DNA from: Bdellovibrionales bacterium
GTDB lineage: Bacteria > Bdellovibrionota > Bdellovibrionia > Bdellovibrionales > UBA1609
Assembly (NCBI GenBank): GCA_965219095.1
Contig: CBDCMT010000001.1
Location: 256,001-320,000 of the forward strand
Reading direction: 5' to 3'
Length of the DNA stretch: 64,000 nucleotides
Under the pieces are notes generated by a model. The model did no database searches and was not told the origin of the DNA. It saw only the letters and a program-made list of their open reading frames with translations. A program made the translations under genes and the position numbers. Below, piece after piece: positions 4,045 to 40,215 of this stretch. How positions within the stretch are numbered: the first letter of the stretch is position 1; each line of letters opens with the position of its first letter.

Positions 4045-4142
4045 AGGGTTTTAAAAACGATAGGTGAGGCTTTAAACATATTAGATCGGTTTCATATTGT
4101 GGCAAGACTCAATAAGGCTTTAGACGAAGTAAGAGCTTCAGA
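4045..4142 (+). mobile_element. Short internal ISL3 transposase relic
   Basis: tagatcggtttcatattgtggcaagactcaataaggctttagacgaagt nearly identical to the ISL3 tnp at ~57718-57775. Confidence 0.75.
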
Positions 4143-4151
4143 TCATATAAC

Positions 4152-4414
4152 GGTAAATCAAAAAGACAGGTCACTGGTTTAAGCCATGATAGTGACCCTA
4201 AAGTACTTGCAGAAGGAGGTGAGCTTTTCGAGACAAATTCTAAACCCTTTAGCTGGCCTGGTTTTTAAGGCCTCAAAGGATGTTTTCCCTTTTTTTCGAT
4301 TAAGCCTGTATTTTTGTGAAGACTTACTCGAAAAAAAGGAAAAAGCAAAAAAAAGATGTAAAATAGGATTTCAAGACTTTATTTATAAACAAACCAACAA
4401 AGGAGGAAAATAAA
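4152..4414 (+). ncRNA. Candidate IS110 bridge RNA / structured left-end RNA
   Basis: Three stem-loops (~4169-4197, ~4244-4279, ~4283-4343) kept in three copies, directly upstream of the AGGAGG RBS of the IS110 recombinase; RNA status is inferred from family knowledge. Confidence 0.5.
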
Positions 4415-4963
4415 ATGTATGATCACTATATAGCCGTAGATTGGGCACAAAGTAACATGGCCATTTCAAGGATGACAGGCAAATCAAAAGATATTAAGAC
4501 TATGGACACGATTTCAGATCTTGGGAATCTTCGTGCCTATTTAAAAACCCTGAAAGGTAAGAAGATATTGACTATCGAAGAGACTACAACTTCGATAGTG
4601 GTTGTATTCAGAATTAAAGGATAGTGTTGATGAGCTCATAGTCTGTGATCCTCTTCGGAACAGACTTTTAAGTGAAGGGGCTAAAACTGATAAAATTGAT
4701 GCTGAAAAACTTGTTTTATTGTTACGCTCTGGCCTTTTGAAACCAGTTTTTCACTCAGGTGATGAATTCATTTACCTTCGTAAGATTGTCAGTGGATATG
4801 AAGATGTGGTTAAAAGAGGAGTTCGTGTTAAAAACCAAAGATCAGCTCTATTTCGAGCTTCCCACCTTGATGCTAAGAAGCAGACACAATTAAAACTAGC
4901 GGAAGATAAATTTGTTCTAGAAGGCTTAGATAAAGCTTATGGAGAGGAGAAAGCACGTTATGA
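4415..4963 (+). pseudogene. IS110 DEDD (RuvC-like) recombinase, frameshifted near 4595 and 3'-truncated
   Basis: YIAVDW...IEE...VCDP...KTDKIDA catalytic pattern split over ORFs 4415-4624 and 4602-4982. Confidence 0.88.
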
Positions 4964-6370
4964 TACCAATTACAGAAATTAATTCGACATTTTTATGTTC
5001 AAATTTAAAATTTTAAAATTGACTTAAGGAAAAGTTTCAATTAGGAGGCTTTAAAAAAGTTTTTTTTGAAGGGAGGTTGAGTTTTCATAAGATATGTTTA
5101 TTTTATGTATATCTATTGTTGTGTGAATCGATTGATGGGTTAAAATAAGTGTAAAAAAGTGAGGTTAAGATGTAAAATGAAAAAAATCAGTTACGCAATT
5201 TAATTTATAGGTTCAAATTAATTTACAAGCTTGATTCATCTTGTTGTTTTGCCCAAGATCGAGTGCATAATTTTTTAATCCTGCCCTCCTGATCGCAAAA
5301 AGTATTCCAGGCCTCACAACAAGTATTCAGTATATGGTCATAGTTTTTAAAACATGCATTCGATAATTTGATCCTTCGTAATTGTTGCCAGACTTGTTCC
5401 ATGGGATTTAATTCTGGACTATAAGGAGGTAAAGGCATCATGGATAAATTCTTAGGAACTATCAAAGTCTCTGTGGTATGCCAACTGGCTCTGTCCATTA
5501 AAACAATTCCATGATAGTTTTCTTGAATATTTTTAGATATCTCATCTAAGTGAATTTGCATCATCCCTGAATTACATTCCGGTAAAACCCAAGCACAGCC
5601 TTTATCTTTATCCGGACAAACTGCTCCAAAAATATAAGTGGATAAAAATTGTCTTTGTCTCACAACTCTAGGCCGTGTGCCTTTTCTTGCCCAAATCCTG
5701 CTCAAAGAACCTTGCTGAGCTTATTCTGCATTCATCCTGCCACCAAATCTCTATTTTATGAGTCTGAATCTTTTCTTTTATTTTCTCCACCTCTTCTGGA
5801 AAATGTTCCTTAAACTGTTCCATAGCTTCTTAATGAACTTTTAGGATGAAGAGAACGACCACTGATCCATACAATATTAAGGCGGTCTAAAGAAACATAA
5901 ACCCCAGAAAGAGAATAGCAACAGTCAAATTCATCTGCTAAAAGTTTCTGTATTTCCTTTGCTCCTATGCTTCCTCCCTCTCTTTTGTCTTGAATTTCAT
6001 CTAACTTGATTTTGAAGTTCTCTTCTTCTGTCACTGGCAAACGAGGCTTGCGTCCTCTGCCTTCTCGATCTATCAATCCCTCGTAATCAAAGTCTACAAA
6101 AGACTGTAACCAGGATTTGATACTGTGACGGTGATAGAAAACTATACTTGCTGTTTCTTGAATCGATTTTCCTTCTTGCATATGCTGCAAAGCTTGGAGT
6201 TTTATCTTGATGTTGGCACTTCTTTCTACTTTGTAAGTAGCTAGAAAATTATACCCTTGAATCTGTGTAACTAAATCTTTTTTCGACACTCTAAAAATTT
6301 AACAGAGTTTGATCAAAAAGCCAGGACGCTATGCGTTAAAAGAATGTCGAATTAATTTTTGGAAATGGTA
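4964..6370 (-). mobile_element. IS630-family element type A, copy 1 (frameshifted tnp)
   Basis: TIRs TACCAATTACAGAAATTAATTCGAC / TACCATTTCCAAAAATTAATTCGAC; tnp split into 5810-6289 and 5223-5705; LPPYSPELNPME motif; flanks TGA vs TTA do not match. Confidence 0.93.
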
Positions 6371-6372
6371 TT

Positions 6373-6804
6373 ATCTGTTTTGATAACGAATATCCATTAT
6401 GTTCTTCAGATCCACATGCAGTCGATAGAAATGGAAATACCGGACTTATTTTAGCAGCATACCATCTATCACCACACTATGTTAAGGAAGACAAGGCTTT
6501 TATTTTAAGTAGAGCAAAATGGTTCCTTGATCATGGTATGGATGTAAATGCAGTCAATAGATGGGGAAGGACAGCGCTAATATGGGCGGCAAAAAGAGGA
6601 TCCTTAGAACTTGTAGAGCTTCTTTATGAGAAAGGTACAGATATAAATGTAGCTGATGAAAAGGGAATGACAGCACTTATGTATGCTCAACAAGAAAAGC
6701 ATATAGATGTTGTAGAATTTCTTGAAAATCCAGATTCAGTTATAGAGTATAGCAAAGTTTTTGAAGCTGTTGACAAGCCAGAAGTGCTTAAACTTTTGAA
6801 CTAA
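6373..6804 (+). pseudogene. Ankyrin-repeat protein, 5'-truncated by IS630-A
   Basis: Frame open back to the IS junction (..VDRNGNTGLILAA..DVNAVNRWGRTALIWAA..DINVADEKGMTALMYA); at least 3 ankyrin repeats. Confidence 0.8.
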
Positions 6805-6867
6805 AAAAACAATTTGAAGAATATTAATTTTATCTGAATTCGTGCTTAAATTTATATACTACAAATT

Positions 6868-7461
6868 CTATTTTTCTTGACATACTTTTTCTATGTCAGA
6901 AAGAGGTACACCTCCCTTTCTAACACATACTATTTTTTCTCCTTCAAATTTTATAATAGTACTTGGCTTTTGAGACATAAGAGAGGATTCATAGTTATTG
7001 ATGAAAAAGAGATTGGGGAAAACTTTAGTAATCTCTTTTTCTAAAATCAAAGGTGGTTCTCCTGAAAGGTTAAGACTTGTGCTAACCAGAGGTCTGTCAA
7101 AGGTTTCAAAAAGTTCTTTTATAAAAGGATGGGGAGAGCACCTGAGATTGATATACTTTGTTTTGCCATGAATCCAAGAAGGTACACTTTTTTTCCCATA
7201 AAGCAAAACACTACACGGACCCGGCCAAAAAACATTTAAAACTTTTAAAACCTGATCAGGAAGAAAAGCATACTTATAAGCCATATGGATGTCTCTTACA
7301 AGAAGACTTAAAAGTTTTTGGGGGGAGCGTTTTTTAATTTTAAAGATTGCTTTTACAGCTGATGAAGAAAGAGCATCACAACCTAGACCCCATACTGTTT
7401 CTGTAGGATAAATAATAACTTTATTGTTTCTAAGAAGATGGATGGCTTTTTTTACAAACAC
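6868..7461 (-). CDS. tsaC: L-threonylcarbamoyladenylate synthase (TsaC/Sua5/YrdC family)
   Basis: YPTETVWGLGCDA, K.R...K, FWPGP and STSLNLSG motifs. Confidence 0.92.
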   Translation of the reverse strand: MFVKKAIHLLRNNKVIIYPTETVWGLGCDALSSSAVKAIFKIKKRSPQKLLSLLVRDIHMAYKYAFLPDQVLKVLNVFWPGPCSVLLYGKKSVPSWIHGKTKYINLRCSPHPFIKELFETFDRPLVSTSLNLSGEPPLILEKEITKVFPNLFFINNYESSLMSQKPSTIIKFEGEKIVCVRKGGVPLSDIEKVCQEK

Positions 7462-8708
7462 TCTGTAATACCAATATCTGAACGACAGTGAAGATCAGGC
7501 CAATCCACGTATGAAGCATGTTTATAAACTTTTTCAATAGCTTTGCGTAGATCTTTATCAATAGAAACACAATTTAAGACGCGCCCCCCTGCTGTTAAAA
7601 ATTGATCCCCCCTTTTTTTCAAAGCACATGTAAGAAAATAAGAACCATCAGTCTCGTGAAAAATATCTCCTTTTACTTTTAAACCTATTTCTGGATTTTT
7701 GGGATAACCCTGAGAAGCTAGTACAACACATATAGAAAATAAATTCTTAAAACAAAGGCGAGGAACCTTTCCTTCTGCTACTTGGAGCAAAAAAGAACTT
7801 ACGTCTCCTTCAATAAGGGGAAGCAAAACCTGTGCTTCAGGATCGCCAAAACGTACATTGTACTCTAAAACCTTCCAACCACGTGTTGAGTAAATTAACC
7901 CTATATAAAGAACCCCCCTATAAAACAAACCTTTTTTTTCAAGGCCCTTGATGCTAGGCTCTACAATGGTTTTTGTAATCATCTCTTTTTGTTTTTCTTC
8001 TATAGGGATGGGAGCTATAGAACCCATGCCCCCTGTATTAGGCCCTAAACCTCCGTCATTGAGTTTTTTGTAATCACGAACTAGAGGAAGAAGTTCGTAA
8101 TCTTTTCCATTTGTGACAACAAAAAAACTCATCTCTTGTCCTCGATGAAACTCTTCAATAAGAGCTATTTCTCCTGAAGCTTGAAAGATTTTTTCTTCAA
8201 AAAGCTGATAAGCATATTCCTCAACTTGAACAACAGTCTTACAAATACGAACTCCTTTTCCTTGAGCTAAACCATCTGCTTTAAAAACATAGGGAGGTTT
8301 AAAGTTTTTAACGGCCTCTAAAGTTTCTTCTACACTTTTAACAACTTGATATTTAGATGTGGGAATGTTCATTTCCTCCATAAACTTTTTAGCAAAAATT
8401 TTACTTGATTCTAGTTGGGAAGCTTCCTTGCTAGGAGCAAAGACTTTCCAGCCAAGCTCTCTTAACCTATCAGCAAAACCATTAGCACAATAAACCTCAG
8501 GTCCTACGATAACAAGATCAATGTTGTTTTGTTTAAGAAGGTTTATCACCTTATTTTCACAAGATAAGTCAAGATTATGACTTATGATCTTATCTTTAGG
8601 CGAGGGAACTTGAGAGATGATATGAACTTTTTTTGTAGAAGGAGAGAGACTACAAGATCGAGCTAGAGCACTTTCTCTCCCTCCTTGTCCTAAGATAAAG
8701 ACATTCAT
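7452..8708 (-). CDS. purD: Phosphoribosylamine-glycine ligase
   Basis: MNVFILGQGGRE start (ATG 8708), VGPE, LESSKIFAK, KADGLAQGKGV, GPNTGGMG, EYNVRFGDPE, GGRVL. Confidence 0.96.
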   Translation of the reverse strand: MNVFILGQGGRESALARSCSLSPSTKKVHIISQVPSPKDKIISHNLDLSCENKVINLLKQNNIDLVIVGPEVYCANGFADRLRELGWKVFAPSKEASQLESSKIFAKKFMEEMNIPTSKYQVVKSVEETLEAVKNFKPPYVFKADGLAQGKGVRICKTVVQVEEYAYQLFEEKIFQASGEIALIEEFHRGQEMSFFVVTNGKDYELLPLVRDYKKLNDGGLGPNTGGMGSIAPIPIEEKQKEMITKTIVEPSIKGLEKKGLFYRGVLYIGLIYSTRGWKVLEYNVRFGDPEAQVLLPLIEGDVSSFLLQVAEGKVPRLCFKNLFSICVVLASQGYPKNPEIGLKVKGDIFHETDGSYFLTCALKKRGDQFLTAGGRVLNCVSIDKDLRKAIEKVYKHASYVDWPDLHCRSDIGITECL

Positions 8709-8721
8709 CACAAAAACAAGT

Positions 8722-10041
8722 TTACAAAAAAAGAGAGTTCTTGTCACTTTTTATTTTAATTTTTAAGAGATCTGCTATGAGCTTTCCAGACAAATCCTTC
8801 TCCTCAGGAGAACAATAAAGCCTTTCTAAAGTCCGTTTTTTTTCGTATTTATCAAAGATTTCACTAGCTTCATCTAAGGGCACAGCCTTGTCTTGAAATT
8901 TATCTTTAATAAAGATAGGAGATTTTTTAGATTCCCCTTTTGAGGAAGTTTTTTTTATTTTGCTCATTTGAGTTTGGGAATTAACGTAGATGAATCTTAA
9001 ATTTTGCCTTTTAAGCTCTCTTTTTATATTGAGAACCTTTTGGGAGATAAGCCCATCAGAGTGCTCTTCATAAAGCATAACATAGGGTCGGTTTGTGATA
9101 ATTCTTTTAGCCCACTCATTTTCTGATTCTTTTAAATGCGTATGAAGAGTATGATCAGTGCAATCTAAATAAGCTCCTATATCAGAAGGGAGGCGAAACT
9201 TGCAGTCCTTTGAAGAAAAGTATCGAAGCAGCATTTCATCATAAATAACAGATTTATGGTGAACATAAACCATAAGGTACATGTGATGTCTTGCAAGAAG
9301 GAAATCTTCGAAAGCATAAAGTGCTCTTTGATCAAAGCATAAATACAGTTGAGAATCCACTTCATGGTAGGAGAGGTTCGATAAAAGCCAAGAGATTTCA
9401 ACTTTTCCATAATTAGTCCCACAGTAGTAGGAATCCCTTACTAAATAGTCCATACGATCAGCATCTAACTCAGAACTAATGATCTGACTTAAAAGAGGTC
9501 TAAAATCTAAGTTCTTTTCTATAAAAAAATCATCTTTAGTTTGGATTTCAGGGTGTATGAGAGAAGCTATATGAAGGGGTTTAAAAGAAGAAAAATGTGA
9601 TTCTATAGTACGAGTAAGCTGAGAGTCTAAAATGATTTTAATAGTGTAGTCTTCGTGGGTAGCTTTTCTCTTTTTTTGACCTAAGTCTAGAGGAAGTTTA
9701 AGATCTTCAAAATAAGGCATTACTTCTTCTGTTGTGTGACTGAGAGGTCCATGGCCTATGTCGTGCAAAAGAGCTGCTAGTTTTGTGACTTGCTTGAACT
9801 TTTGTTTGACCTCTTCAGAGGACCAAGTGAAATCCTTAAAAATAGCCTCAAAAGCTTGTTCAGCTAAATAAAAAGCTCCAACAGAATGCACATAACGGTT
9901 ATGCATACCTCCTGGAAAACTGAACTCCCCAAAACCAAGTTGCTTTATTCCTCTTAACCTCTGAAAAGCAGGGCTATCGAGAATGTGTTTTTCTTGATCT
10001 GAAATTACAATAGAGCCGTGAATGGGATCTCTGATTTCCAT
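8722..10041 (-). CDS. HD-domain dNTP triphosphohydrolase (SAMHD1/YwfO-like)
   Basis: IRDPIHG, FQRLRGIKQLG, HNRYVHS, ALLHDIGHGPLSH, LDADRMDYL.RD. Confidence 0.88.
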   Translation of the reverse strand: MEIRDPIHGSIVISDQEKHILDSPAFQRLRGIKQLGFGEFSFPGGMHNRYVHSVGAFYLAEQAFEAIFKDFTWSSEEVKQKFKQVTKLAALLHDIGHGPLSHTTEEVMPYFEDLKLPLDLGQKKRKATHEDYTIKIILDSQLTRTIESHFSSFKPLHIASLIHPEIQTKDDFFIEKNLDFRPLLSQIISSELDADRMDYLVRDSYYCGTNYGKVEISWLLSNLSYHEVDSQLYLCFDQRALYAFEDFLLARHHMYLMVYVHHKSVIYDEMLLRYFSSKDCKFRLPSDIGAYLDCTDHTLHTHLKESENEWAKRIITNRPYVMLYEEHSDGLISQKVLNIKRELKRQNLRFIYVNSQTQMSKIKKTSSKGESKKSPIFIKDKFQDKAVPLDEASEIFDKYEKKRTLERLYCSPEEKDLSGKLIADLLKIKIKSDKNSLFL

Positions 10042-10134
10042 GCCTATCTCCTTTTCTAAAGCAGAGCATAAAATATAAAGGTTTTTATTATTTTATGCAA
10101 TAGTTGATACATAGAGTTTTTTAGGGGAAAGATT

Positions 10135-10932
10135 ATGAAGTCTTATTTAGAACTTATGGAAAGGGTCTTAAAAAAAGGGGAGAAAAGAAAAGATCGCACA
10201 GGGGTTGGAACTTTAAGTCTTTTTGGAGAATCTCTGTGCTTTGATCTTAGTGAAAATTTCCCTCTTCTTACAACAAAAGAGGTTCATTTAAAATCCATCA
10301 TCTATGAACTTTTATGGTTTTTAAGAGGAGATACAAATGTTGAGTATCTTAAACGTCATGGGGTAAGAATCTGGAATAAATGGGCTGATGAGAAAGGATC
10401 TTTAGGCCGAGTGTATGGAGCTCAATGGAGGGATTGGAGGAATGAAAACAAAGAAAGCCTCGATCAAATAGCCTCCGTTATTAGTGAAATGAAAAAAAAC
10501 CCCTCTTCAAGAAGACTGTTAGTGGTGAGCTTCAATCCAGGAGAGTTATCTCAAATGGCCCTTCCTCCCTGCCATGCCTTCTTTCAATTCTATGTTTCTG
10601 GAAAAAAAGAGCTGTCTTGTCAGATGTACCAAAGAAGTGCTGATTTATTTTTAGGCGTCCCTTTTAACATCGCAAGCTATTCCCTACTAACTCTTATGGT
10701 GGCTCAAGTGTGTGGCCTCAAGGCTAAGGAATTTATTCATGTTTTTGGAGATGTTCATATCTACAAAAACCACTTAGAACAAGTAACTTTACAACTGAAA
10801 AGAAAACCCAAAGCACTTCCTCAAATACATTTGAATCCTAAAGTGAAAGATATTTTTAGCTTCCAATATGAAGATTTTCACTTAGCAAACTATCAATTTC
10901 ACCCTTCTCTGAAGGCAGAGGTCGCTGTTTGA
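10135..10932 (+). CDS. thyA: Thymidylate synthase
   Basis: [40 protein letters not shown]. Confidence 0.98.
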
Positions 10933-11432
10933 TCTTAAGTCATATTGTCGCATGCTCTGAAAATTATGTTATAGGAAATAAAGGGAAACTTCCTTGGCAC
11001 ATACCAGAGGACTATAGATTTTTCAAACAAACAACACAAGGTCATACAATCATCATGGGAAGGAAAACCTATGAAAGTCTTGGAAAACCTTTACCTAACA
11101 GACGTCACATTGTCATTACAAAATCAAAAGACTTTATTAAAAAAGTAGATAAAAAGACCCTTGTTGTCTCTTCTGTTAAAGCCTCTATAGAAGTTGCAAA
11201 AAAATATAGCTTCTCTAAAAAAGAGGAAGTTTTTATCATAGGAGGAGGTGAAATCTATTATCAGACTCTCGATCTTGTGGATAGAATTTATCTTACACTA
11301 ATTCATGAAACTTACCCTGGAGACACATTCTATCCAAAATTTGATAAAAAACTTTTTAAAGAACGTTCCAGGAAGCTAAGAAATGAAAAAAAACCTTTCT
11401 TTACCTACTATTTATACGAACGTTTTCGATAA
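10929..11432 (+). CDS. folA: Dihydrofolate reductase
   Basis: VIG...[35 protein letters not shown]; 4-bp overlap with thyA (TTG start). Confidence 0.97.
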
Positions 11433-11530
11433 AGATTAATTTTTTAAACCTTTCTATTAATCTAGATTCTTTTTTGTCAAACCTATAGTTAATAATTTCA
11501 CCATTATTGAATCTTTCGCATAAATCATCT

Positions 11531-11559
11531 TGCTCATCTTATGTCACATAAGATGAGCA
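11531..11559. repeat. Perfect 14-bp inverted repeat with 1-nt spacer
   Basis: TGCTCATCTTATGT-C-ACATAAGATGAGCA, about 100 bp downstream of folA. Confidence 0.8.
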
Positions 11560-11610
11560 TCACTTTAAAAACCTTTGAAAGAAAGCCAAGTCCATCTATC
11601 AATCAACATA

Positions 11611-14160
11611 TAGTGCTTCCGCTTAGGTTTTCAGTTTTTTTTGAGTTGAGGTCTAGTTTTTATTCTAAGGCCTTGATAAAAAGTCATTTATTTTTAAAAA
11701 TAGTTTCATATGTCAGGGTTTCTATCAAAAAAAGAGCGAAAAGATTTACTCTATGAACTATCTCTAGAGAAAAATATTAAATACGTAAAAAGGATTATGA
11801 CAATTCTCCATTTAGATAAAGGTGAGTTGTGTAAAGATATTTCCCGTTTTCTTTTCATTGATGAGGGCACGATAAGAGCCTGTAGAGATCGTTATAACAA
11901 AGGAGGGATAGAGTGCTTAATCAACGACAATTACAACCTAAAAGGTCCTTTTTAACTAAGAAAGAGGAGAAAATGCTTTTAAAGGAGTTAAAAAAAAGAA
12001 TTTTTCCGTCATCACAGTCTGTTATTCAGTTCATTGAGGAGAATTTTGGTGTTATACCATTTCCAAAAATTAATTCGACATTTTTTTAACTCATTGCGTC
12101 CTGGCTTTTTGATAAAACTCTGTTAAATTTTTAGAGTCATGTCGAAAAAAGATTTAGTTACACAGATTCAAGGGTATAATTTTCTGGCTACTTACAAAGT
12201 GGAAAGAAGTGCCAACATCAAGACAAAATTATTGGCTTTGCAGCATATGCAAGAAGGAAAATCGATTCAAGAAACAGCAGGTATGGTTTTGTATCACCGT
12301 CACAGTATCAAATCCTGGTTACAGTCTTTTTTTGTAGACTTTGATTACGAGGGATTGATAGATCGAGAAGGCAGAGGACGCAAGCCTCGTTTGCCAGTGA
12401 CAGAAGAGGAGAGGTTCAAAATCAAGTTAGATGAAATTCAAGACAAAAGAGAGGGAGGAAGCATAGGAGCAAAGGAAATACAGAAACTTTTAGCAGATGA
12501 ATTTGACTGTTGCTATTCTCTTTCTGGGGTTTATGTTTCTTTAGACCGCCTTAATATTGTATGGATCAGTGGTCGTTCTCTTCATCCTAAAAGTTCACAA
12601 GAAGCTATGGAACAGTTTAAGGAACATTTTCCAGAAGAGGTGGAGAAAATAAAGGAAAAGATTCAGACTAATAAAATAGAGATTTGGTGGCAGGATGAAT
12701 GCAGAATAAGCTCAGCAAGGTTCTTTGAGTAGGATTTGGGCAAGAAAAGGCACACGGCCTAGAGTTGTGAGGCAAAGACAATTTTTATCCACTTATATTT
12801 TTGGAGCAGTTTGTCCGGATAGAGATAAAGGCTGTGCTTGGATCTTACCGGAATGTAATTCAGGGATGATGCAAATTCACTTAGATGAGATATCTAAAAA
12901 TATTCAAGAAAACTATCATGGAATTGTTTTAATGGACAGAGCCAGTTGGCATACCACAGAGACTTTGATAGTTCCTAAGAATTTATCCCTGATGCCTTTA
13001 CCTCCTTATAGTCCAGAATTAAATCCCATGGAACAAGTCTGGCAACAATTACGAAGGATCAAATTATCGAATGCATGTTTTAAAAACTATGACCATATAG
13101 TGAATACTTGTTGTGAGGCCTGGAATACTTTTTGCGATCAGGAGGGCAGGATTAAAAAATTATGCACTCGATCTTGGGCAAAACAACAAGATGAATCAAG
13201 CTTGTAAATTAATTTGAACCTATAAATTAAATTGTTTAACTGATTTTTGTCATTTTAAATTTTACCCTCACTTTTTCACTTATTTTAACCCATCAATCGA
13301 TTCACACAACAAATAGATATACCTGAAATAAACTTATCTTATGAAAACTTAAACTCACCTTAAAAGAAGTTTTTTTAAAATCTCCTAACTGAAACTTTTC
13401 CTTAAGTCAATTTTAAAATTTTAAATTTGAACATGAAAATGTCGAATTAATTTCTGTAATTGGTATTACGTACTCAACAAGTGGTGCGATTGATCTTCTC
13501 CATCGCCTTGGTTTTTCTTATAAAAAAGCCACAGCGATACCGGGCAAAGCGAAGAGAGAAGAGCAGAAAAAGTTTGTGCGTAAATACAAGAGAATTAAGA
13601 AGAAGGGTGGTCTTGTTTACTTTGCTGATTCCACACATCCTGAGTGGAGCCCTACGATTTCATATGGTTGGATAAGAGAGGATAAGAAGTTTGAAGTGAA
13701 GACCAATTCAGGCTGGAGAAAAAGAGTGAATGTTTGTGGAGCTATTGAGATCAATAGTTTGAAGACGGTAGTCAGGAGTTATAAGACAGTTAACCATGTT
13801 TCCATATGTGATATGCTCTATCATATTCATTAAGAAGTATTCCGATGAAAAAGAGATTCATCTTATCTTAGATGGGGCCGGATACAATAGATCGAAGTCT
13901 GTCAAGAAGTTAGCGAAAGAGTTGAATATAAAACTTGTTTATCTTCCTCCGTACTCACCGAATTTAAATCCTATAGAAAGGCTTTGGAAGTTTATGAAAA
14001 AAGAGGTCACGGCGAATCGATATTATGAAAACTATGACGATTTCAAGGGAAGTTTAAGTCAATTTTTTAGAGGAATACGAAAACACAGGCCTAAATTAGA
14101 AACTTTGATAACTGATAACTTCTCTATCTTAGGAACCTGAAAACCTAAACGGAAGCACTA
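11611..14160 (+). mobile_element. IS630-family element type B, copy 1 (frameshifted; interrupted by IS630-A copy 2)
   Basis: TIRs TAGTGCTTCCGCTTAGGTTTTC / GAAAACCTAAACGGAAGCACTA with TA flanks; tnp fragments 11710-11955, 13576-13833, 13796-14140. Confidence 0.93.
12055..13465 (+). mobile_element. IS630-family element type A, copy 2 (frameshifted), nested in IS630-B
   Basis: Same TIRs as copy 1; TTA duplicated at 12052-54 and 13466-68 relative to the empty site ggtgttacgtac at ~14601. Confidence 0.95.
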
Positions 14161-14162
14161 TA

Positions 14163-16193: not shown

Positions 16194-16197
16194 TTAC

Positions 16198-18860: not shown

Positions 18861-18893
18861 GACATTTCTCTTTTTTTGTTTTATACCATTTTT

Positions 18894-25526: not shown

Positions 25527-25541
25527 AATCTGAAACCCCTT

Positions 25542-28752: not shown

Positions 28753-28754
28753 TA

Positions 28755-28825: not shown

Positions 28826-28849
28826 TATACGCATATCAATAACTCATAT

Positions 28850-30861: not shown

Positions 30862-32383
30862 GCCTCCTCAAAAGAATCTGTGGGTTCCCGGAGGTTCTGG
30901 CAGTTTTCCAAGGTTATGATATAAGGCGATTTTTATAGCTTTAGAGGTTCTAAAGCCGTAAGATTTTCTCATAGTGAGTTTTACTTTGTTGTTTAAACCC
31001 TCTACAATCCCTGAGGAGAAGGTTTTTTTAGCCTTGAAGTAATTAAGAATAAGTAGCTTATGTCTTCGTATGGTTTTTGCTTCTCTTTTCATAGGTTCAA
31101 TTTTTGAAAGCATGACTCGTTTCGTCCAACTGTCTATAAATTTACCAGCCCAAGTTGGTGAAACATAGGTCCATAACTGTCGGAAGTCTTCTTTTAAAAA
31201 ATAACAGCGGATACTTTTTAAATTGTACTGTATTAAATGCCTTAATTTTACTTTTTCATAAGATTTTAAATTTTCTGCATTTTTTAACAAGGGCCATCTA
31301 GCTTTTGTTAAAAGGGGTTCATACCCGTCTTCTTTCATTTTTTTGTGTTCTGAAGCTCTCACTTCGTCTAAAGCCTTATTGAGTCTTGCTACGATATGAA
31401 ACCGATCTAATATGTGTAAAGCTCCACTTGCCCTCTCCTTTATGACTTTTAAATAAGGCTTCCACATATCAGAACACACAAACCGTATATCTTTTGACTT
31501 CTCTCCTAGTAAATCAAAGAATTTTCTAAAACTCTTTTCTGTTCTTTTTTCTCCTATCCATAGCAAACGAACACTTTCTTTGCTTATTTCATAGACTAAG
31601 GTGAGATACTGATGGTTCTTTTTCCATTGTATTTCATCTACACCTATAGCTTGTATTCCCTTTAAAACCCTTTGTTTTAAACCATATTCTACGACCCATT
31701 CTACCGAAGCATAGACCTGATTCCAACTGACATGAAACTTACAAGAAACCTCTTTCCAAGACAGGTGACGACACCAGTCTGCTAAATACTTCATGTAAAA
31801 AATTGTTAGGTTTTTCTTCCCATCTGCCCAAGGTAAATACTCAACTTTTACTCCACAGCAAGAACAATTAACTCTTCTTACAAAATAAACAAAAAACACC
31901 CTGTAACTTAAAATAGGAAGGGATTCAAAGTCCCGTGATGATTTACTGCTGTCATACACTGAACAGGGCTTCTTACAAACACTACAAAAAGCTTGGCCAT
32001 TTTTACGAGCCTTAATAGGAACATTAATTGACTTTCTATCTTTTGAAAAATAAATGTCTTCGTACACAAAAGACTTCCATCTTAAACAATCATTTAGTAT
32101 AGTCTTCAAAAGCATCTCTTCCCTCCTTTTTTTTTTTTTTTGAATAACATTTTAAGGCATCTGGGAAGTAGGTGCTTCTTTTTTAAAATTTTAATGTAAC
32201 ACAGCAAATAAAAGCAAATAAAATGAATGTTTTTGAGTTCAATCACCGGAGGTGATAGAGGCCAGTAAGAGCCTCAAAGAACTCAAAAATACAAGATAGG
32301 ATGTCTTAACTCTTGCTTTGATTAATATGAGCCTTTTTGGGGGATTTCTACTACTTTTCACCCACAGATTCCCGGGAGGAGCC
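30862..32383 (-). mobile_element. ISL3-family element, intact (1522 bp)
   Basis: Imperfect TIRs GGCTCCTCCCGGGAATCTGTGGGT / GCCTCCTCAAAAGAATCTGTGGGT; 8-bp target duplication CAAAAATA (30854-61, 32384-91). Confidence 0.95.
30868..32115 (-). CDS. ISL3 transposase, 415 aa
   Basis: Zn finger CSVC/CSCC, IGVDE, CSDMWKPY, DRFH, SSGIVEGLNNKVK...YGFR. Confidence 0.95.
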   Translation of the reverse strand: MLLKTILNDCLRWKSFVYEDIYFSKDRKSINVPIKARKNGQAFCSVCKKPCSVYDSSKSSRDFESLPILSYRVFFVYFVRRVNCSCCGVKVEYLPWADGKKNLTIFYMKYLADWCRHLSWKEVSCKFHVSWNQVYASVEWVVEYGLKQRVLKGIQAIGVDEIQWKKNHQYLTLVYEISKESVRLLWIGEKRTEKSFRKFFDLLGEKSKDIRFVCSDMWKPYLKVIKERASGALHILDRFHIVARLNKALDEVRASEHKKMKEDGYEPLLTKARWPLLKNAENLKSYEKVKLRHLIQYNLKSIRCYFLKEDFRQLWTYVSPTWAGKFIDSWTKRVMLSKIEPMKREAKTIRRHKLLILNYFKAKKTFSSGIVEGLNNKVKLTMRKSYGFRTSKAIKIALYHNLGKLPEPPGTHRFF

Positions 32384-32558
32384 CAAAAATATAGAGAAGT
32401 TCTTCTAGAATAATTCTTAGTTTTTTTTCGTATTTTGATTTTCTTTGTGCTTTATTCTTTTAAGAACGAAGCTCACTTGTATACTCAAGAGGCGTTTTAA
32501 TAGGTGTTTTATTGAGGGAGTTTCCCACAGCCATTAAAATATAGTCCTTAGGATTTAA

Positions 32559-32792
32559 TACCAATTACAGAAAATAATTCGACGGTAAATCAAAAAGACA
32601 GGTCACTGGTTTAAGCCATGATAGTGACCCTAAAGTACTTGCAGTAAGGAGGTGAGCTTTTCGAGACAAATTCTAAACCCTTTAGCTGTCCTGCTTTTTA
32701 AGGCCTCAAAGGGTGTGTTTTCCCTTTTTTTCGATTAAGCCTGTATTTTAGGCTTACTCGAAAAAAAGGAAAAAGCAAAAAAAGATGTAAAA
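32559..32792 (+). mobile_element. 25-bp IS630-A TIR stub fused to IS110 left end (copy 2), cut by IS5
   Basis: TACCAATTACAGAAAATAATTCGAC|GGTAAATCAAAAAGACAGG...; same junction as 39816. Confidence 0.85.
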
Positions 32793-34068
32793 TAGTCGAA
32801 CGTGAAAAATTGACAAAAGCCTAGGATTTTTATGCTGTATGATCTTTATTCCTGTTACTTTCTACTATAGAGGGTTAAATATTTTTTCATAACTTAAACA
32901 AAACAGTAGTTTTCAAGAAGGCGTACAGGCCTTTTAAGCCATTTCAGTGAAAAAACCGACTTACCTTTAAACTGTGAACATCTGATACATTTTTTTCAAA
33001 TGACTTTACCCCTAAAACCCAGCAATTTTTTGATGAAGTTGCCACACTCACCTTATTGCCAAATTCATATTTTTTATGGGCTTTGCCCTTCCCTATGCAA
33101 TAAACCTCAGGAGCATGAACACTATACACCTTGTTCTTATCCCCTCTTTTTTGGTTATAAATTCTTACACATAAAGATAAACATCTTTTTAAAGATGTAT
33201 TCTCTTCCAAGAACTTAGGACCTCCTTTTCTTGTAACATCTCTTATCACACGACCTAGATAAGTATGAAGCTTTCTTTGCTGTTTTCTTGCTAAACGTAT
33301 TTTTCTTGTATGAGCATAACGAGCATTCTTAAACAAACACTCCTTGGCCTTTCTTTTATAGCTTTGACGTAAAACTAAACCCTCTTTTTTAGCCCTGTGA
33401 ACTAAAGTCTTTAAAGCTTTGTAATAAAGACGGCTGTCTGTAGGAAAAGCTATTGCTTTCTCTTGAACAGTTGTATCAACAACTACATTCTCAAACTCTT
33501 TTTTTTTTACAAAATCCTCTCTCAAAGCTAAATCAATGGTTTCCTCTAAGAGAACTTCTATCTTCTCAGCCCCCATCCTCTTTCTCCAGTTAGTCAATGA
33601 ACTTCTATCACAGGGATCTTCATAAGAATAAAAAGGCTGACCACAAAAATACTGCCATTGAGGACTCTCTTTGAACATTTCTATTGTCTTCTCGTCACTT
33701 AAATTATAAATGTATTTCAAGCACTGAAGTCCCACCATTAAACGAGTTGAAAGACCTGGACGACCTTTTTTTTCATCATACTTCGAACCAAAATCTTTAT
33801 CAAAACGATCCCAGTCTATTTTATTAGCTAAAATGACAAGCGGATGCTTCTAATGACAAGCGGATGCTTCTTATGAACAATGTCGTTTACTCTAAAATTA
33901 AGAGGGCTTCTCTTTTGTGTGCTGAACATGTCTTTTGGCCTCATCTTTTTTCCTTTCTGTTTTGCAAGGTTTTTTATCTGTTTTTCCACTTCCTTGCAAT
34001 TATTTTTATGCAAAAATTACAAAAAAACAAGTGTTTTTAGCTGTTTGTGCATTTTTCACGTTCGACTA
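32793..34068 (-). mobile_element. IS5-family element, inactivated
   Basis: TIRs TAGTCGAACGTGAAAAAT at both ends; tnp (ATG ~33944; VDTTVQEKAIAFPTD, KGKAHKKYEFG.KV) frameshifted by a 20-bp tandem duplication (33832-33871) and deleted at an IS66-type end (32947-32964). Confidence 0.9.
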
Positions 34069-34186
34069 ATTTAGTTCTTTTCATAAATGAACCTTTCTTT
34101 TTTATTCTTTTAATTTCTAACTAAGTGATAGTTTTTTATTTTTTTTGACCCTTTAGCTTAAGAGTTTTTAAAAGTTTTTCTGTCTA

Positions 34187-34255
34187 TAGTGCTTCCGTTT
34201 AAGTTTTAAGGTTTTTCTCTAGAGAATCGACCGGAGAATCTAAGCGTATTCACTA
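34187..34255. mobile_element. ~70-bp MITE, copy 2
   Basis: TAGTGCTTCCGTTTAAG...CTAAGCGTATTCACTA flanked by TA; inverted homolog of 28755-28825. Confidence 0.8.
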
Positions 34256-34409
34256 TATAAAATAGCCCAGGGATTGATTTTACAATGAGATCTTTTTTCA
34301 TTGAGGAATAGCAGGAAGATAGTATAGATTCATTAGGTTGTTTTATATATCTTTGTCAATAGTTTATTTTTTCATTGAGATTTATTCATTCTTATGACAT
34401 TTTTAAGGT

Positions 34410-36503
34410 ATGTCGTTCAAAGATCCTAAAACTTTAGAGGATTTGAAAAAAACTCGTAATATAGGGATTGCAGCTCATATTGATGCAGGAAAAACCACAA
34501 CAACAGAACGGATTCTTTACTATACGGGAAAAAGTTATAAAATTGGTGAAGTTCATGAAGGTGATGCTACAATGGATTGGATGATACAGGAGCAAGAAAG
34601 GGGTATTACTATTACAGCTGCTGTTACTACTTGTTTTTGGAAAGGCTATAGAATCAATGTAATCGATACTCCCGGGCATGTGGATTTTACAATAGAAGTA
34701 GAGCGCTCTTTGAGAGTTTTAGATGGTATGGTTGCTGTTTTTGATTGTGTTCATGGTGTAGAGCCTCAGTCAGAGACAGTTTGGAAACAAGCGGATCGTT
34801 ATAAAGTTCCTAGAATTTGTTTTATTAATAAAATGGACCGCATAGGAGCTGATTATTTTAAAAGCATTCAATCTTTAAAAGAAGGGCTTTCAGATAGGGT
34901 TTTGCCCCTTCATTATCCTTTAGGAGAGGGAAATGAATTTTACGGAATAGTCGATATCATTACTTTAAAAGCTTATACTTGGAAAAGTAATGACAAGGAT
35001 GAAAAGCCTGAAGAACAGAGTATTCCTTCTGAATTAGTAGAAGAGATTCAAAAGCTAAGAAAGAATATATTAGAAGCCATAGCCGAAATTGATGATGATT
35101 TTATGCAGAAATATTTGAATGAATATAAATTTTCTGAAAAAGAGATTCAAGAGAGTTTGAGAAAAGCAACTTTGGCTTTGAAGATTTTTCCTGTTTTGTG
35201 TGGTACGGCCTTTAAGAACAAAGGTGTAAGAAAACTTTTGGATTCTATTGTGCATTACCTTCCTCACCCTTTAGATCGTCCTTCTCTTTTAGGCTTTGAT
35301 CCTAAAAATGAAGATAAAAATATAAGTTGCCCTACAGACTTTGAGCATACTCCTGTTATTTTAGCTTTTAAAATTAGTGGCGATCATTTTTCTGGTACAC
35401 TCACCTATGTTCGTGTCTATTCAGGTATTTTAAAAGAAGGGCAGATTCTTTTAAACCCTAGAATTTCAAAGAAAGAAAGAGTACAAAAAATCTTCCGTAT
35501 GCATGCTAACACACGAGAGATGGCAAAGGAGCTAAAAGCAGGGGATTTAGGAGTCATTGTAGGTTTGAGAGAAACAGCAACGGGCGATACCCTTTGTGAT
35601 CCAAAAAACCCTGTGGTTTTAGAATCTATATACTTCCCCGAGCCTGTGATTTCCTTAGCTGTTGAAGGAAAAACTTCAGAAGATCAAAAGAAACTACGTC
35701 AAGCTTTTGAGATTCTTCAAAAAGAAGATCCTTCCTGTAAGGTGAAAGAAGACCCTGAAACAGGACAAACCTTGATTCAAGGAATGGGAGAGCTTCATAT
35801 AGAAATTTTAATTGATCGCTTAAAAAAGGAAAAAAGCCTCCATTTAAATGTAGGCCAGCCACAGGTTTCTTTTCGAGAAACCCCTATGGTGGATGCAGAA
35901 GGGGAAGCTTCATTTACACATGAAGTAAGTGGGCAAAATCAATTTGGACATTGTTGCATTTTGATTTCACCCCTAAAAAGAGGAGGAGGGTTTTTGTTAG
36001 AAAATCATTTAGACAAAAGTCTTGATGAAGAGATTGTGAGAGCTATAAAAGAGGGTGTTCGTGAGGCTCGAGAAATAGGGCCTATAGCAGGTTATCCTTT
36101 AATGGATCTAAAAGTTGTTTTAAAACAAGCACAAATTCATGAAAAAGATTCTTTTGCTACTTCCTATCGTATAGCCACAATTAGAGCTTTCCATGAGGCG
36201 GTAAAAAAATCTCAAGCCTGTCTTTTAGAGCCTTTGTTTGCTTTAGAGGTCATAACACCAGAGAACTATTTAGGAGGGATCATTTCTGATCTTAATTCAA
36301 GGCAAGGGCAGATAGAAAAAACAGTATCAGAAGAAAATTATCGAAAAATTTATGCACAAGCTCCTTTGCGAAATTTGTTTGGTTATGTAACATCCATACG
36401 TTCTTTAAGCCAAGGTAGAGCTTCTTTTACTATGAAATTTAAAGAATATATAGAAGTGAACCCTAAAGTTTCCGAAGGACTTTTGAAAAGCTTAGGGCAT
36501 TGA
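34410..36503 (+). CDS. fusA: Elongation factor G (stand-alone, probably a paralog)
   Basis: [34 protein letters not shown]; not flanked by rpsL/rpsG/tuf. Confidence 0.92.
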
Positions 36504-36518
36504 AATTTCAATTTTAAA

Positions 36519-37421
36519 TTAATGCAAGGTAAGAGGGGTTGGGGATTCTTGCATTTTTTTTAACTCATGAAAGATTTCTATAATGTCTTTAGAAACATTT
36601 TCTTCTTCTACAAAGTTAAAATAACGATCCATAGCTAGAAAGGCTTCTTTATGAAGTCCTAATTGTCTCTTGAGTAAAGCAATATTTAAAAATAAATCAG
36701 TACGCATGTCATTTAAAGCAAGAAGACACTCGCTAATAGTGATTTCTTTTTCTGGAGCTTTCTCGGCCTTATAACTTGCAAGACGTTGTTCTAAATACTC
36801 TTCAAATATATCTGTAATTTTACATGTGTCTAATTGCAGTTTATGTTCAAGAAGCCGTCTACTTTTATGAATAATACTGAGGCTTTCTTTTTCTGATAAC
36901 TCTGAGCATTGCTCAGAAAAGTTATAAAACACTGTCTTCTTATTTTTTTCTATTTTTTTTAAAATAAGACGAGGCGAAAGATTTACAAAGTACAAAGGAA
37001 TTTCTAAGTGTTGTATAAAACAGTTATAGAGAAGGGCTAGAGCAATGTTTGCCCCTTCTTTTGATTCGATAATATAAGGAACAGACCAATGGTGTTGTTC
37101 TATTTTTTGGGGGATGGTTTTTTTGAATTTTTTGATTTTAAAGAAGTATTCATTTAATAAAGAAGTTTTTTCAAAAATATTTTTACTTCTTGTTCTATCT
37201 TCTATTTCTAACAACATGCGGTTGATAGAACTTTTTGTTGTTTTTAGGTTCTCGGTTGTTTCTAAAAAACTTTGCAAATCAATAGAAATCTGCGGTCCTA
37301 GGGAGAGATCTCCATCTTTAAAGCTACGAATTTCAAACAATAGCTTTTTCCAATGGTTTGACTTTACCTCAAGCATACCTTTATTAGAACGAAAGAGAAG
37401 AGAAATGTAAATAAAAAACAA
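36519..37421 (-). CDS. SirB1/transglutaminase-like family protein with TPR-like tail
   Basis: LNEYFF...F, IESKEG..IALALLY, EIPL..VNL pattern; true start may be ATG 37376. Confidence 0.6.
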   Translation of the reverse strand: MFFIYISLLFRSNKGMLEVKSNHWKKLLFEIRSFKDGDLSLGPQISIDLQSFLETTENLKTTKSSINRMLLEIEDRTRSKNIFEKTSLLNEYFFKIKKFKKTIPQKIEQHHWSVPYIIESKEGANIALALLYNCFIQHLEIPLYFVNLSPRLILKKIEKNKKTVFYNFSEQCSELSEKESLSIIHKSRRLLEHKLQLDTCKITDIFEEYLEQRLASYKAEKAPEKEITISECLLALNDMRTDLFLNIALLKRQLGLHKEAFLAMDRYFNFVEEENVSKDIIEIFHELKKMQESPTPLTLH

Positions 37422-37483
37422 AAAAACTTGTCACATGAAGTCAAGGCCTTTTTCCACAAGATAGAACAAGGCATAATTAAAGT

Positions 37484-38374
37484 ATGTCTATAGGTGATGA
37501 TTTAAAAGAACAAATTGAGTTTTTAAAAAGGCAGATTGACTTAAAAAATAAAGATTTATCACAATTTAGATACAATTTGCGTCAAGCGAATCAAAAGATG
37601 CTTCAACTTTACAAACGTCTTGAAGATGACATTCATTCACTTAAAGTCGTTCAAAACCTGCTTATGCCTTCTGAATTGCCTCACATTCCTGGATTTAGGT
37701 TTAGTACTAAGATTGTGCAAGGACAAAAGTCTGGGGGAGATTATTTTGATATCTTCACTCAAGATAAGAGGTTTCGCTTTGGTTTTCTTGTGTCTTCTTG
37801 TTCAAGCTATGGATTATCATCTTTGTTTTTATCTGTACTTTTACAATGGGGTCAACAGTTTAAAGACAGTAAGATCAGCATAAAAGAAGTGTTTAAAGTG
37901 TTATCTGAAAATCTATCTTCTTCTTTAAAAACATCAGATGTTTTGCATTTATTTTATTCTCATGTGAATCGTAAAACACTTCAGGTTGATTATGGTTTGG
38001 TGGGTGATATTGTAGTTTTTTATATAAATGAAGATAACATTCAGATTTTAGAGAGTGAGGGTCTTTTTCAAAGAGGTGAAACCTTAAATATTACAACAAA
38101 AAGTCTTCCTATGAAATCTCAAGAAACACTTCTTGTGTGTTCACCAGGTCTTTTTTCCATCCCACACCACCAAACAAGAGAACTTTATTCAAAAGAACGA
38201 GTTATTTCTATAGTGAAGGACTGGGATAAAAAAGAAGTCCATGATTTGAGAAATGATTTATTCTATGATCTTCAAAAGTTTTCTCAAAAAGAAAAGTTTG
38301 ATAGAGATGTTTTAGTCTTCATTCTTAACGTGAAGAGCGAGACTTTATATATTGCGAAATCTGTAAAGGACTAA
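37484..38374 (+). CDS. Coiled-coil plus SpoIIE/PP2C-like domain protein (degenerate active site)
   Basis: VQNLLMP, SGGDYFDIF; the usual DVSGHG and TDG motifs are replaced. Confidence 0.7.
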   Translation: MSIGDDLKEQIEFLKRQIDLKNKDLSQFRYNLRQANQKMLQLYKRLEDDIHSLKVVQNLLMPSELPHIPGFRFSTKIVQGQKSGGDYFDIFTQDKRFRFGFLVSSCSSYGLSSLFLSVLLQWGQQFKDSKISIKEVFKVLSENLSSSLKTSDVLHLFYSHVNRKTLQVDYGLVGDIVVFYINEDNIQILESEGLFQRGETLNITTKSLPMKSQETLLVCSPGLFSIPHHQTRELYSKERVISIVKDWDKKEVHDLRNDLFYDLQKFSQKEKFDRDVLVFILNVKSETLYIAKSVKD

Positions 38375-38421
38375 ATCCGTAAATTCTTTAATTAAGAAAT
38401 AAGAGGCTCTTAGTCTTCCTT

Positions 38422-38871
38422 TTATTTTTTCTTTTTAGAGATTTTATAATCTTTGAATTTTTCCTCAACCGTGTTTCTTGAAGGAAGCTCCATAAGGTTG
38501 TGTTGAATGATAATATGAAACTGATGAGGTTCATCATGGACAAGCATTAAAATTTCTAAGGCGTGGTGAGCGTTTTTTTGAGAGGAGAGTTGAAAAGGGG
38601 GAGGGACTTGGAAACTCCATTCGTAAGCAGGGGGACTTCCCGATTTGATCTCTATGGTTTTAAGCTGAGGAAGCTTCCATTTGATTTGAGCCCACTCTTG
38701 TTGAAGTTTTTTTTTCTCATAACTGAAGTTTTGGATTTTTGAGTTCATTTCACTGGTTGTGTTTTTTAGAGGATCTTTTCCTGATTTTATTATAAAAAAC
38801 CCTACAAGGATTAAAAGAGCCATTAAAGTTCCTATAAAGAGAGGTTTTTTTGTAATAAGAGATTTTTTCAT
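38422..38871 (-). CDS. Hypothetical single-TM protein
   Basis: 149-aa ORF with N-terminal hydrophobic helix; AAGGA upstream. Confidence 0.6.
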   Translation of the reverse strand: MKKSLITKKPLFIGTLMALLILVGFFIIKSGKDPLKNTTSEMNSKIQNFSYEKKKLQQEWAQIKWKLPQLKTIEIKSGSPPAYEWSFQVPPPFQLSSQKNAHHALEILMLVHDEPHQFHIIIQHNLMELPSRNTVEEKFKDYKISKKKK

Positions 38872-38985
38872 ATCCTTTTATCGGGTTGAAAGTGACAAAA
38901 ATTTAGACATTTGTATAACAATTTTGGTTTTTAAGCTCAATTAAGGAAAAAAATACCTCAGAACAGAATTTAAATGCATTTGAGC

Positions 38986-39000
38986 TGGCATGATTTGTGA
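38986..39000 (+). promoter_or_regulatory. Possible sigma-54 (-24/-12) promoter
   Basis: TGGCATGATTTGTGA (GG-N10-GA), 27 bp before the lipoprotein ATG. Confidence 0.3.
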
Positions 39001-39027
39001 ATTCTTTATTTATAGGAAGGAGGTTTT

Positions 39028-39834
39028 ATGAAAACCTTATATTATTATTTACTAACTTTTTTCACAGCCTTAGGAGCTGTGTTTGCTGTTGTAAGCTGTT
39101 CTTCAACAGGAGGAAATTCAGCCCTTAGATGCTCCCATTTAACAGGCTTAGCTTATGAAGAATGTTTACTTTCTTTAGACTTCAATTACGAGTGGTATGG
39201 CACGTTAGCCATTAAAAACACAAAAGCTTTTCGAACTTCTTTAGAAGGACAGGGGATATGCAATCGTCTTGATGAGAGTTGGCTGGTGGGACTTGTGCAA
39301 TTTAATAAATGTAAGCACTTAGATCAGCAGATAAGAGTTCTTATCAAAAAAGAGAGCTTAGGATCTCACGACCGTTCAGAAGTGAGCATTGCCATTATAA
39401 CTGAAGACAAAAACTTTTTTAATAAGGGCAATTATGTAAACTTACTTAATGGATCTAAGTGTGGATCAGATGAGTATTGTTATGACCAAGTTAACAGGGC
39501 TTTTCTCACAAAAACAAACAACGAAAAAGATGAGGCCATACAATCGGGAGATTTTAGAGTAGTGATAAGGGGTGGACTAGCTGATCGTGGAGGATATGTG
39601 CATGTCTTTACCTCAGAAGGTATTGAAGTGGCTTCAGGGCGACTTAAATATGAGAACTTACGGGAAGATGATGATTATTGCAGGGAGCATTATGATCCTA
39701 GTCGATGTCATAATAATTGGCTACGGAATGATGGCTATTATCAGGATGACGGTTATTATCAGGATGACGGTTATTATCAGGATGACGGTTATTATCGAGA
39801 TAATGGCCATTATAATACCAATTACAGAAATTAA
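39028..39834 (+). CDS. Hypothetical Cys-rich lipoprotein with C-terminal DDGYYQ repeats; 3' end replaced by IS630-A TIR
   Basis: AAGGAGG RBS, lipobox-like AVVSC; last codons (NTNYRN*) come from the TIR at 39816. Confidence 0.75.
   Translation: MKTLYYYLLTFFTALGAVFAVVSCSSTGGNSALRCSHLTGLAYEECLLSLDFNYEWYGTLAIKNTKAFRTSLEGQGICNRLDESWLVGLVQFNKCKHLDQQIRVLIKKESLGSHDRSEVSIAIITEDKNFFNKGNYVNLLNGSKCGSDEYCYDQVNRAFLTKTNNEKDEAIQSGDFRVVIRGGLADRGGYVHVFTSEGIEVASGRLKYENLREDDDYCREHYDPSRCHNNWLRNDGYYQDDGYYQDDGYYQDDGYYRDNGHYNTNYRN
39727..39812 (+). repeat. 18-bp coding tandem repeat
   Basis: GATGACGGTTATTATCAG: two perfect units, one near-perfect unit and two degenerate flanking units. Confidence 0.9.
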
Positions 39835-40215
39835 TTCGACGGTAAATCAAAAAGACAGGTCACTGGTTTAAGCCATGATAGTGACCCTAAAGTACTTGCA
39901 GAAAGAGGTGATTTTCGAGACAAATTCTAAACCCTTTAGCTGGCCTGTTTTTTAAGGCCTCAAAGGGTGTTTTCCCTTTTTTTCGATTAAGCCTGTATTT
40001 TTGTGAAGGCTTACTCGAAAAAAAGGAAAAAGCAAAAAAAAGATGTAAAATAGGATTTCAAGACTTTATTTATAAATAAACCAACAAAGGAGGAAAATAA
40101 AATGTATGATCACTATATAGCCGTAGATTGGGCACAAAGTAAATGGCCATTTCAAGGATGACAGGCAAATCAAAAGATATTAAGACTATGGACACGATTT
40201 CAGATCTTGGGAATC
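39816..40215 (+). mobile_element. 25-bp IS630-A TIR stub plus IS110 left end (copy 3) and start of the recombinase
   Basis: Junction ..AATTCGAC|GGTAAATC at 39840/41; ATG 40102 MYDHYIAVDWAQS, frameshifted, then truncated. Confidence 0.88.

Follow-up and report, generated by a model that had tools for sequence, protein, structure and literature searches.

IS4321 and IS5075, which Partridge and Hall are said to have described in 2003, reportedly belong to the IS1111 group of insertion sequences (ISs) and insert at a fixed site within another transposon, in its terminal inverted repeat. Here, we describe an IS1111-group element of the IS110 family, present in a 64-kb window (positions 256,001 to 320,000 of contig CBDCMT010000001.1) of a Bdellovibrionales genome. 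Like IS4321 and IS5075, it has sub-terminal inverted repeats and a fixed site in the terminal repeat of another transposon. As far as the accessible descriptions of these two elements go, it differs in that it targets IS630, IS481 and ISAzo13 instead of Tn21-family ends, its second main site is a start codon, and several guide alleles coexist.

For the seekRNA elements ISEc11 and ISXne4, a natural change of guide and target was reported between two distinct elements (PMC11187229). In the accessible part of that report, they resemble the present element in the downstream non-coding region, in the top-strand guide preceding the bottom-strand guide, and in the change of guide and target. Here, however, the change took place among ~98% identical copies in one genome and was confined to the guide. 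IS621, the bridge RNA of which acts in trans (PMC11208160, accessible part), has in common with our element a DEDD recombinase, target and donor loops, a short core and, presumably, action in trans. The IS621 RNA lies upstream and has a right guide of ~4 nt, whereas the corresponding region is downstream here, with a right guide of 7–8 nt. The profile similarity to the structures used for the IS621 comparison (PDB 8wt6 and 9t56) was weak (E = 9e-10). Copy-out transposition is dealt with in a further, partly accessible report (10.1101/2025.10.25.684509). Our literature search, which left most subscription journals uncovered, yielded nothing on IS110 or IS1111 elements in IS630 ends or on guide alleles within one genome. 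We consider it very probable that the element belongs to the IS1111 group, was targeted to IS630 and IS481 by a downstream RNA with allelic guides, and later spread in IS630 shells. The mechanism is mostly of a known kind and the observation is real; what is uncommon is that near-identical copies carry different guide alleles, two of which are aimed at the same rival element.

An exact-match search of the window with a 23-nt left-end probe gave three matches, at 4152, 32584 and 39841 (chance expectation 0.00). Each of the three pieces is the left end of a dead element that measures 1,654 bp when complete. They and their surroundings comprise the following features, where IS630-A denotes the resident IS630 element:

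4069–4142, plus strand: ISL3 transposase fragment, joined to the IS481 end via five common bases (4138–4142)
4138–4151, plus strand: left half of the target site in an IS481-type right end, with the AC core at its end; exact match to 57906–57919, minus strand
4152–4963, plus strand: IS1111-group copy 1, mapping to element positions 1–823; guide-bearing right end lost
4964–6370, minus strand: complete IS630-A of 1,407 bp inside copy 1, assigned from Pfam DDE_3 and HTH matches, ends and length
4964–4996, plus strand: free target A, the IS630-A right inverted repeat, with core 4987–4988; fits guide allele 1
6281–6294, plus strand: free target E over the IS630-A start codon (6289–6287, minus strand), with core 6286–6287; fits guide allele 2
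32559–32583, plus strand: left flank of copy 2, formed by the outermost 25 bp of the IS630-A right inverted repeat
32584–32795, plus strand: IS1111-group copy 2, left end and leader only (element positions 1–215)
39816–39840, plus strand: left flank of copy 3, again the outermost 25 bp of the IS630-A right inverted repeat
39841–40215, plus strand: IS1111-group copy 3, comprising the left end, the leader and the opening part of the recombinase gene (element positions 1–379)
40216–40259, no strand assigned: palindromic mini-element of 44 nt, which terminates copy 3
57896–57919, minus strand: free IS481-type right end, with the IS1111-group site 10 bp from the tip

The left ends at 32584 and 39841 directly follow the first 25 bp of the IS630-A right end, and their outer flanks differ, as claimed in the preliminary description made from the letters of the window. 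The same right end occurs in free form at 4964. The 15-mer at 4138–4152, earlier ascribed to an IS481 end, indeed has an exact copy on the minus strand at 57905–57919, inside the IS481-type end beginning at 57896. Because its final base is base 1 of the IS1111-group element and its opening five bases are common to the ISL3 fragment, only nine bases are IS481-specific. Three further genomic copies of the element carry the full IS481 flank, which ruled out that this junction is diverged ISL3 sequence. The IS481 label is based on the end letters, the 1.2-kb size and the protein text rather than on a Pfam scan. The stretch 4069–4142 has 84 genomic matches, with identical text in the ISL3 copies at 31376 and 57751 (Pfam DDE_Tnp_ISL3).

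Copy 1 consists of the left end and leader (4152–4414) and a frameshifted recombinase fragment from 4415, with a Pfam DEDD_Tnp_IS110 (PF01548) match at 4602–4979. All three copies are truncated and have lost the right end and the guide RNA. Two of the elements proposed earlier to have broken them were recovered, IS630-A at 4964 and a DUF772 (IS5-type) element at ~32796 (Pfam DUF772 match at 32947–33738); the third breaker is the 44-nt palindrome at 40216–40259, possibly of the IS3 type suggested for it. The IS630-A inside copy 1 holds both target sites uninterrupted, and its target E is among the exact genomic matches to the allele 2 site. Next to copy 3, 21-bp tandem repeats (39731–39800) are located at the end of an open reading frame (39028–39834) that has no Pfam match and reads at its end through the IS630 repeat piece.

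In the 3.11-Mb genome (34% GC), a full copy contains a 263-nt leader, the recombinase gene and ~365 nt downstream. Elements of the IS1111 group have asymmetric sub-terminal inverted repeats, usually of 11–13 bp, located ~7 or 6 bp and 3 bp from the ends. The repeat found here is perfect but shorter (9 bp), 5 and 4 bp from the ends as cut in this work, and its paired bases co-vary among relatives. A consensus −35 box is located at the right end. The nearest recombinase relatives are uncultured (52–85% identical), the closest being in Bdellovibrionales genome bins. Intact ones (70–85% identical) have both IS110 domains, e.g., P0002 (83% identical) with PF01548 and PF02371; the acidic residues are invariant in the recombinase alignment and the C-terminal serine motif is nearly so. 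The DEDD (RuvC-like) and IS116/110/902 domains of the IS110 family are thus present. There is no true target duplication, as the left and right junctions restore the free target around one core, of which the relatives have only the last base in common. The sub-terminal repeats, the guide-bearing non-coding region downstream, and the top-strand guide preceding the bottom-strand guide are those of the IS1111 group. The IS621 type carries its guide RNA in the left end, whereas the target-matching segments are downstream here.

Four frameshifts are common to most copies, the first three being present in 17/19, 13/15 and 14/14 copies. None of the 17 PF01548 matches in the assembly is an intact recombinase gene, as an active autonomous element would have; the longest open frame is 149 aa. 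The 60-nt hairpin of the leader gave only weak Rfam matches, far below the gathering scores. A 55-bp leader deletion (element positions 129–183), which removes part of the hairpin, was found in nine copies, among which three types of flank are represented. Left ends that are older, and that differ in the first core base as the relatives do, were found on contigs C1 (183346) and C2 (522034, 2387572, 868214 and 1494856); the first frameshift is absent from the two of them that span its site.

In the genome-wide census, 40 distinct left and 33 right junctions were counted, of which 35 and 28, respectively, occupy fixed positions in other ISs or repeats. The left junctions are distributed over the IS630-A right repeat, with a variant form included (24), the IS630-A start codon (4), the IS481 end (4), a 170-bp repeat (2), the ISAzo13 end (1), a transketolase fragment (1) and elsewhere (4). 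The right junctions are in the start codon (15), the IS630-A repeat (6), IS481 (4), the 170-bp repeat (3) and elsewhere (5). Two single positions in IS630-A take 28/40 left and 21/33 right junctions, and all eight IS481 junctions are at one position, with 276,714 AC dinucleotides available in the genome. As 36% of the genome occurs in three or more copies, a location in another IS is often to be expected in any case, and it is the fixed positions that carry the weight. Two diverged left ends found in a separate mapping stand outside the census, and the identical copies with identical flanks at C1 222877 and C2 2394665 (a duplication or an assembly overlap) were counted once. At least seven distinct target sequences were used: two IS630 sites, IS481, ISAzo13, the 170-bp repeat, the transketolase fragment and unique DNA. 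In the 170-bp repeat (C1 64933–65102) no gene was found, and its opening 15 bases recur 43 times.

The census supports the earlier proposals of insertion at fixed sites in other ISs and of a crossover at AC, and the right flanks, the suggested check, resume the host sequence. Targeting of terminal inverted repeats, also proposed, holds for the IS630 right repeat and the IS481 end, but the second commonest site is the IS630 start codon and the left repeat is never used. The two IS630 ends are identical at 26/30 bases, so position 25 falls within the repeat. None of the 40 left junctions is in the left inverted repeat, despite 38 free copies of the closest variant. The start-codon site is ~80 bp from the IS630 left end, and insertion there splits the first codon of the IS630 gene. 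Targeting is by sequence, uses several guides and is wider than inverted repeats. The positions make inactivation of the host ISs by insertion plausible.

Several candidate assignments were discarded. Site G, considered as an IS end, is the transketolase fragment; site E, considered as an ISL3 leader, is the IS630-A start-codon site; and the supposed second IS630 family is the left end of IS630-A. A long-read artefact is unlikely, with the same junction types found in the short-read contigs of one study, possibly on the source sample. IS630-A itself has identical 3-bp flanks on both sides in 43/49 full copies, longer than the 2-bp target duplication of IS630. Its 52 full copies form two clades; some have one 357–368 aa frame and others two frames of ~165 aa. 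The start-codon site has two variants, which differ by three bases. Host escape through a later expansion of guide-mismatched IS630 variants was unsupported (mean pairwise divergence 1.38% vs 1.27%).

The guide RNA region was located with the aid of relatives, in which the sequence downstream of the gene forms a conserved scaffold containing two variable segments. We tried 43 loci, of which 38 were aligned, 26 had a called right end and 25 had enough flank (L078, a near duplicate, was omitted). The first variable segment is complementary to the right flank of its own element, with a mean of 6.2/7 versus 2.69 for shuffled pairs at the 25 loci, two registers being allowed for observed and shuffled alike. 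None of 10,000 shuffles reached the observed value, and 20 loci matched at 6/7 or better. The second segment matches the left flank at 3.8/7 versus 2.15 (11 loci, 0/10,000 shuffles), according to a first guide test in which some rows were one base off. The loci are related, hence not independent, and their guides differ in nearly every row. In the stems closing the loop, 97.5% of cells were paired, as compared with 45–71% for slid controls, and 8/9 pairs showed two-sided change; the loop structure was drawn from the sequences tested, which biases these figures in its favor. Segments matching both donor halves lie further downstream, as judged by eye. Folding the RNA region as a single sequence gave no significant result (z = −1.49).

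In the alignment, the top-strand guide comes before the bottom-strand guide, in agreement with the accessible part of PMC11187229, and the position and order of the guides fit IS1111-type RNAs (PMC11208160, PMC11187229, as far as accessible). The leader RNA had earlier been suggested as the place to look for guide segments. This location was rejected, as the segments that match the target are in the non-coding end downstream of the gene and the leader is alignable to relatives only at its ends. The uncultured relatives have the same end structure and RNA scaffold but differ in guides and targets; copies were found in three of their genomes (3, 5 and 13). The relative represented by L063–L072, with 13 matches in its genome and apparently full-length copies, is located in a short palindromic repeat. 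Its right-guide region has two forms among nine copies and matches its own flank poorly.

The present genome contains 18 complete guide cassettes, on copies that are ~98% identical: seven of allele 1, nine of allele 2 and two of allele 3. Two of the allele 2 cassettes are one duplicated locus and carry a fourth change. With at least three guide alleles, the single-guide model weighed in the preliminary description was abandoned, while its proposal of RNA-guided targeting gains support from these alleles and from the guide–flank matches in relatives, both of which suggest pairing of an RNA with the target. The left guide is identical in alleles 1 and 2, and three bases distinguish their right guides. 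No other of the 1,635 eight-base windows varies as much as the right guide (0.195 vs a mean of 0.016), while the carriers of the two alleles diverge downstream by 1.9%, no more than within the groups (1.8–2.1%). The right guide of allele 1 and the IS630 right repeat show nine bases of complementarity, and 45 of the 47 exact genomic matches to its 14-base site are in that repeat. For allele 2, all 25 exact matches to the predicted site are at the IS630 start codon. The right junctions at the start site are in the guide-matched variant in 15/15 cases (free copies: 25 matched, 61 unmatched), and those at the IS630 repeat in 6/6 (free copies: 45 matched, 38 unmatched). The IS630 left repeat departs from allele 1 only at outer guide positions. 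In allele 3, both guides and the inner stem are changed, and it fits the 170-bp repeat loosely, over six bases up to the core and two beyond. Our best guess is that allele 3 was behind the junction at 4138, which is the least well explained in the window because this allele fits IS481 poorly. In five of the nine allele 2 cassettes (C1 172882, C1 310527, C1 526973, C2 1475215 and C2 2072315), another IS breaks the cassette immediately upstream of the right guide.

Several observations weigh against guide-directed insertion as described here. The guide fails to fit the flank of its own copy in many cases, and 5/25 relative loci match their right flank at 5/7 or less. For allele 3, no exact site exists in the genome, and a bulge or shift is needed to fit it to IS481. 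Both matched IS630 variants are mainly in one clade, so the choice of variant may reflect the clade present, and the junctions are not independent. No helper recombinase was found in the 94% complete assembly, and all recombinase copies found are broken.

From the ends, junctions, guide position, alleles, matches and frameshifts read in the sequence, we infer RNA expression, a circle, trans action, shell transposition and harm to the hosts. The ends of the element would join in a circle to form the donor site, with the −35 box adjoining the left end. An RNA from the 365-nt downstream region would present a donor-binding loop and a target-binding loop, the latter with the right guide at element positions ~1348–1356 and the left guide at ~1373–1381. 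The recombinase would then insert the circle at the core of the site paired with the target loop. Allele 1 would direct it to the IS630-A right repeat, allele 2 to the IS630-A start codon, and allele 3, loosely, to the 170-bp repeat and the IS481 end. Guides may act in trans or shuffle between copies, because the guide of a copy often mismatches its own flank; together with the right-end polymorphisms, which are shuffled across flank classes, this implies trans action or gene conversion. Where both IS630 sites are occupied, recombination would delete the IS630 body. The resulting shell, made up of 25 bp of one IS630 end, the IS1111-group element and 80 bp of the other end, would probably be copied onward by the IS630 transposase.

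The junctions could alternatively stem from hitchhiking alone, in which one or two insertions hit IS630-A by chance and then grew in number through IS630 transposition and recombination, without true targeting. This would account for the left junctions favoring the repeat (24 vs 4) and the right junctions the start site (15 vs 6; p = 8e-5), and for the frameshifts common to the copies. It would also explain why junction-linked IS630 ends carry alleles rare in free copies (7/18 vs 1/36, and 14/18 vs 7/36 by hand count). However, the same frameshifts occur in copies within different hosts, at least seven target sequences were used, and the guide alleles fitting both IS630 sites and the covariation in relatives are left unexplained. 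As the sole cause, hitchhiking is largely refuted by the guide matches and is very unlikely. We nevertheless take it as a real second step. The left–right asymmetry and the shared frameshifts point to later spread in IS630 shells, so that copy counts overstate events, including the reading of copy number as a count of insertions. Many IS630-linked copies probably spread as passengers, and independent insertions number at least seven and probably well below 40. The shared rare alleles fit later shell copying or an extinct host lineage. One IS630 copy has the IS1111-group element at both sites (C2 1421822–1423889), and a shell with both outer IS630 ends and matching 3-bp flanks is present at C2 1748080–1749672.

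A recombinase that reads a general feature of IS ends (bound transposase, a bend or a hairpin), with RNA pairing secondary, would be in line with the several targets 10–25 bp from an IS tip, with the poor fit of allele 3, and with the structural second filter reported in the accessible part of a study on ISPpu10 (10.64898/2026.03.19.712850). We regard this as highly improbable, given that the IS630 left repeat has the core and 12 surrounding bases in common with the target, yet took 0/40 junctions, and that the start-codon site is 80 bp inside IS630. For the IS481 junctions, off-target half-match events are conceivable, with the donor loop taking the IS481 tip as donor. The other strand of this tip resembles the donor junction by eye, and half-match insertion at the donor has been shown for IS621 (10.64898/2026.08.31.748434, accessible part). 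This mechanism predicts the wrong orientation here, every IS481 junction being opposite to the donor-like prediction, and one of the two allele 3 copies is located at an IS481 end; we therefore find it unlikely.

Within the guide-directed reading, the origin of the alleles can be considered. Of six bases compared between alleles 1 and 2, three are changed, each of them in the direction of the IS630 start site, and none of the 18 cassettes is intermediate; at background divergence, at least three changes in six bases have a probability of 1.3e-4. Stepwise mutation with selection, which we somewhat favor, and import of the loop from a sister element, which is possible but less probable, also account for this pattern. 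That the element uses target DNA to rewrite its right guide is quite unlikely. On the reverse strand, the guide-encoding DNA is a half-target, and an aborted exchange with a near-target could copy 6–8 target bases into the guide. In 2/22 cassette matches, the inverted end of another copy is fused exactly at the core-pairing base of the guide, so the guide locus itself is a recombination substrate:

C2 1617205–1617280: right-guide DNA replaced by the inverted end of another copy
C2 625655–625720: right-guide DNA replaced by the inverted end of another copy

Nine genomic sites show a right-end tip joined to a left-end tip in inverted orientation; unrelated DNA borders both sides of five of these sites. 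The right guide of an old sister relic (L173, C1 10583–10892, 69% identical) shows complementarity to the left end of the present element in inverted form, and was possibly aimed at sibling elements.

How bridge and seek RNAs gain new target matches is an open question in the field. In this genome, a guide change was caught among near-identical copies, with free and occupied sites available for comparison, and it provides natural guide–target pairs with mismatch controls ready for assay. Guide rewriting, if it occurs, could resemble spacer acquisition as a route of retargeting. The RNA-guided element is aimed twice at one resident transposon, at its end and at its start codon, and apparently then rode inside the IS630 shell.

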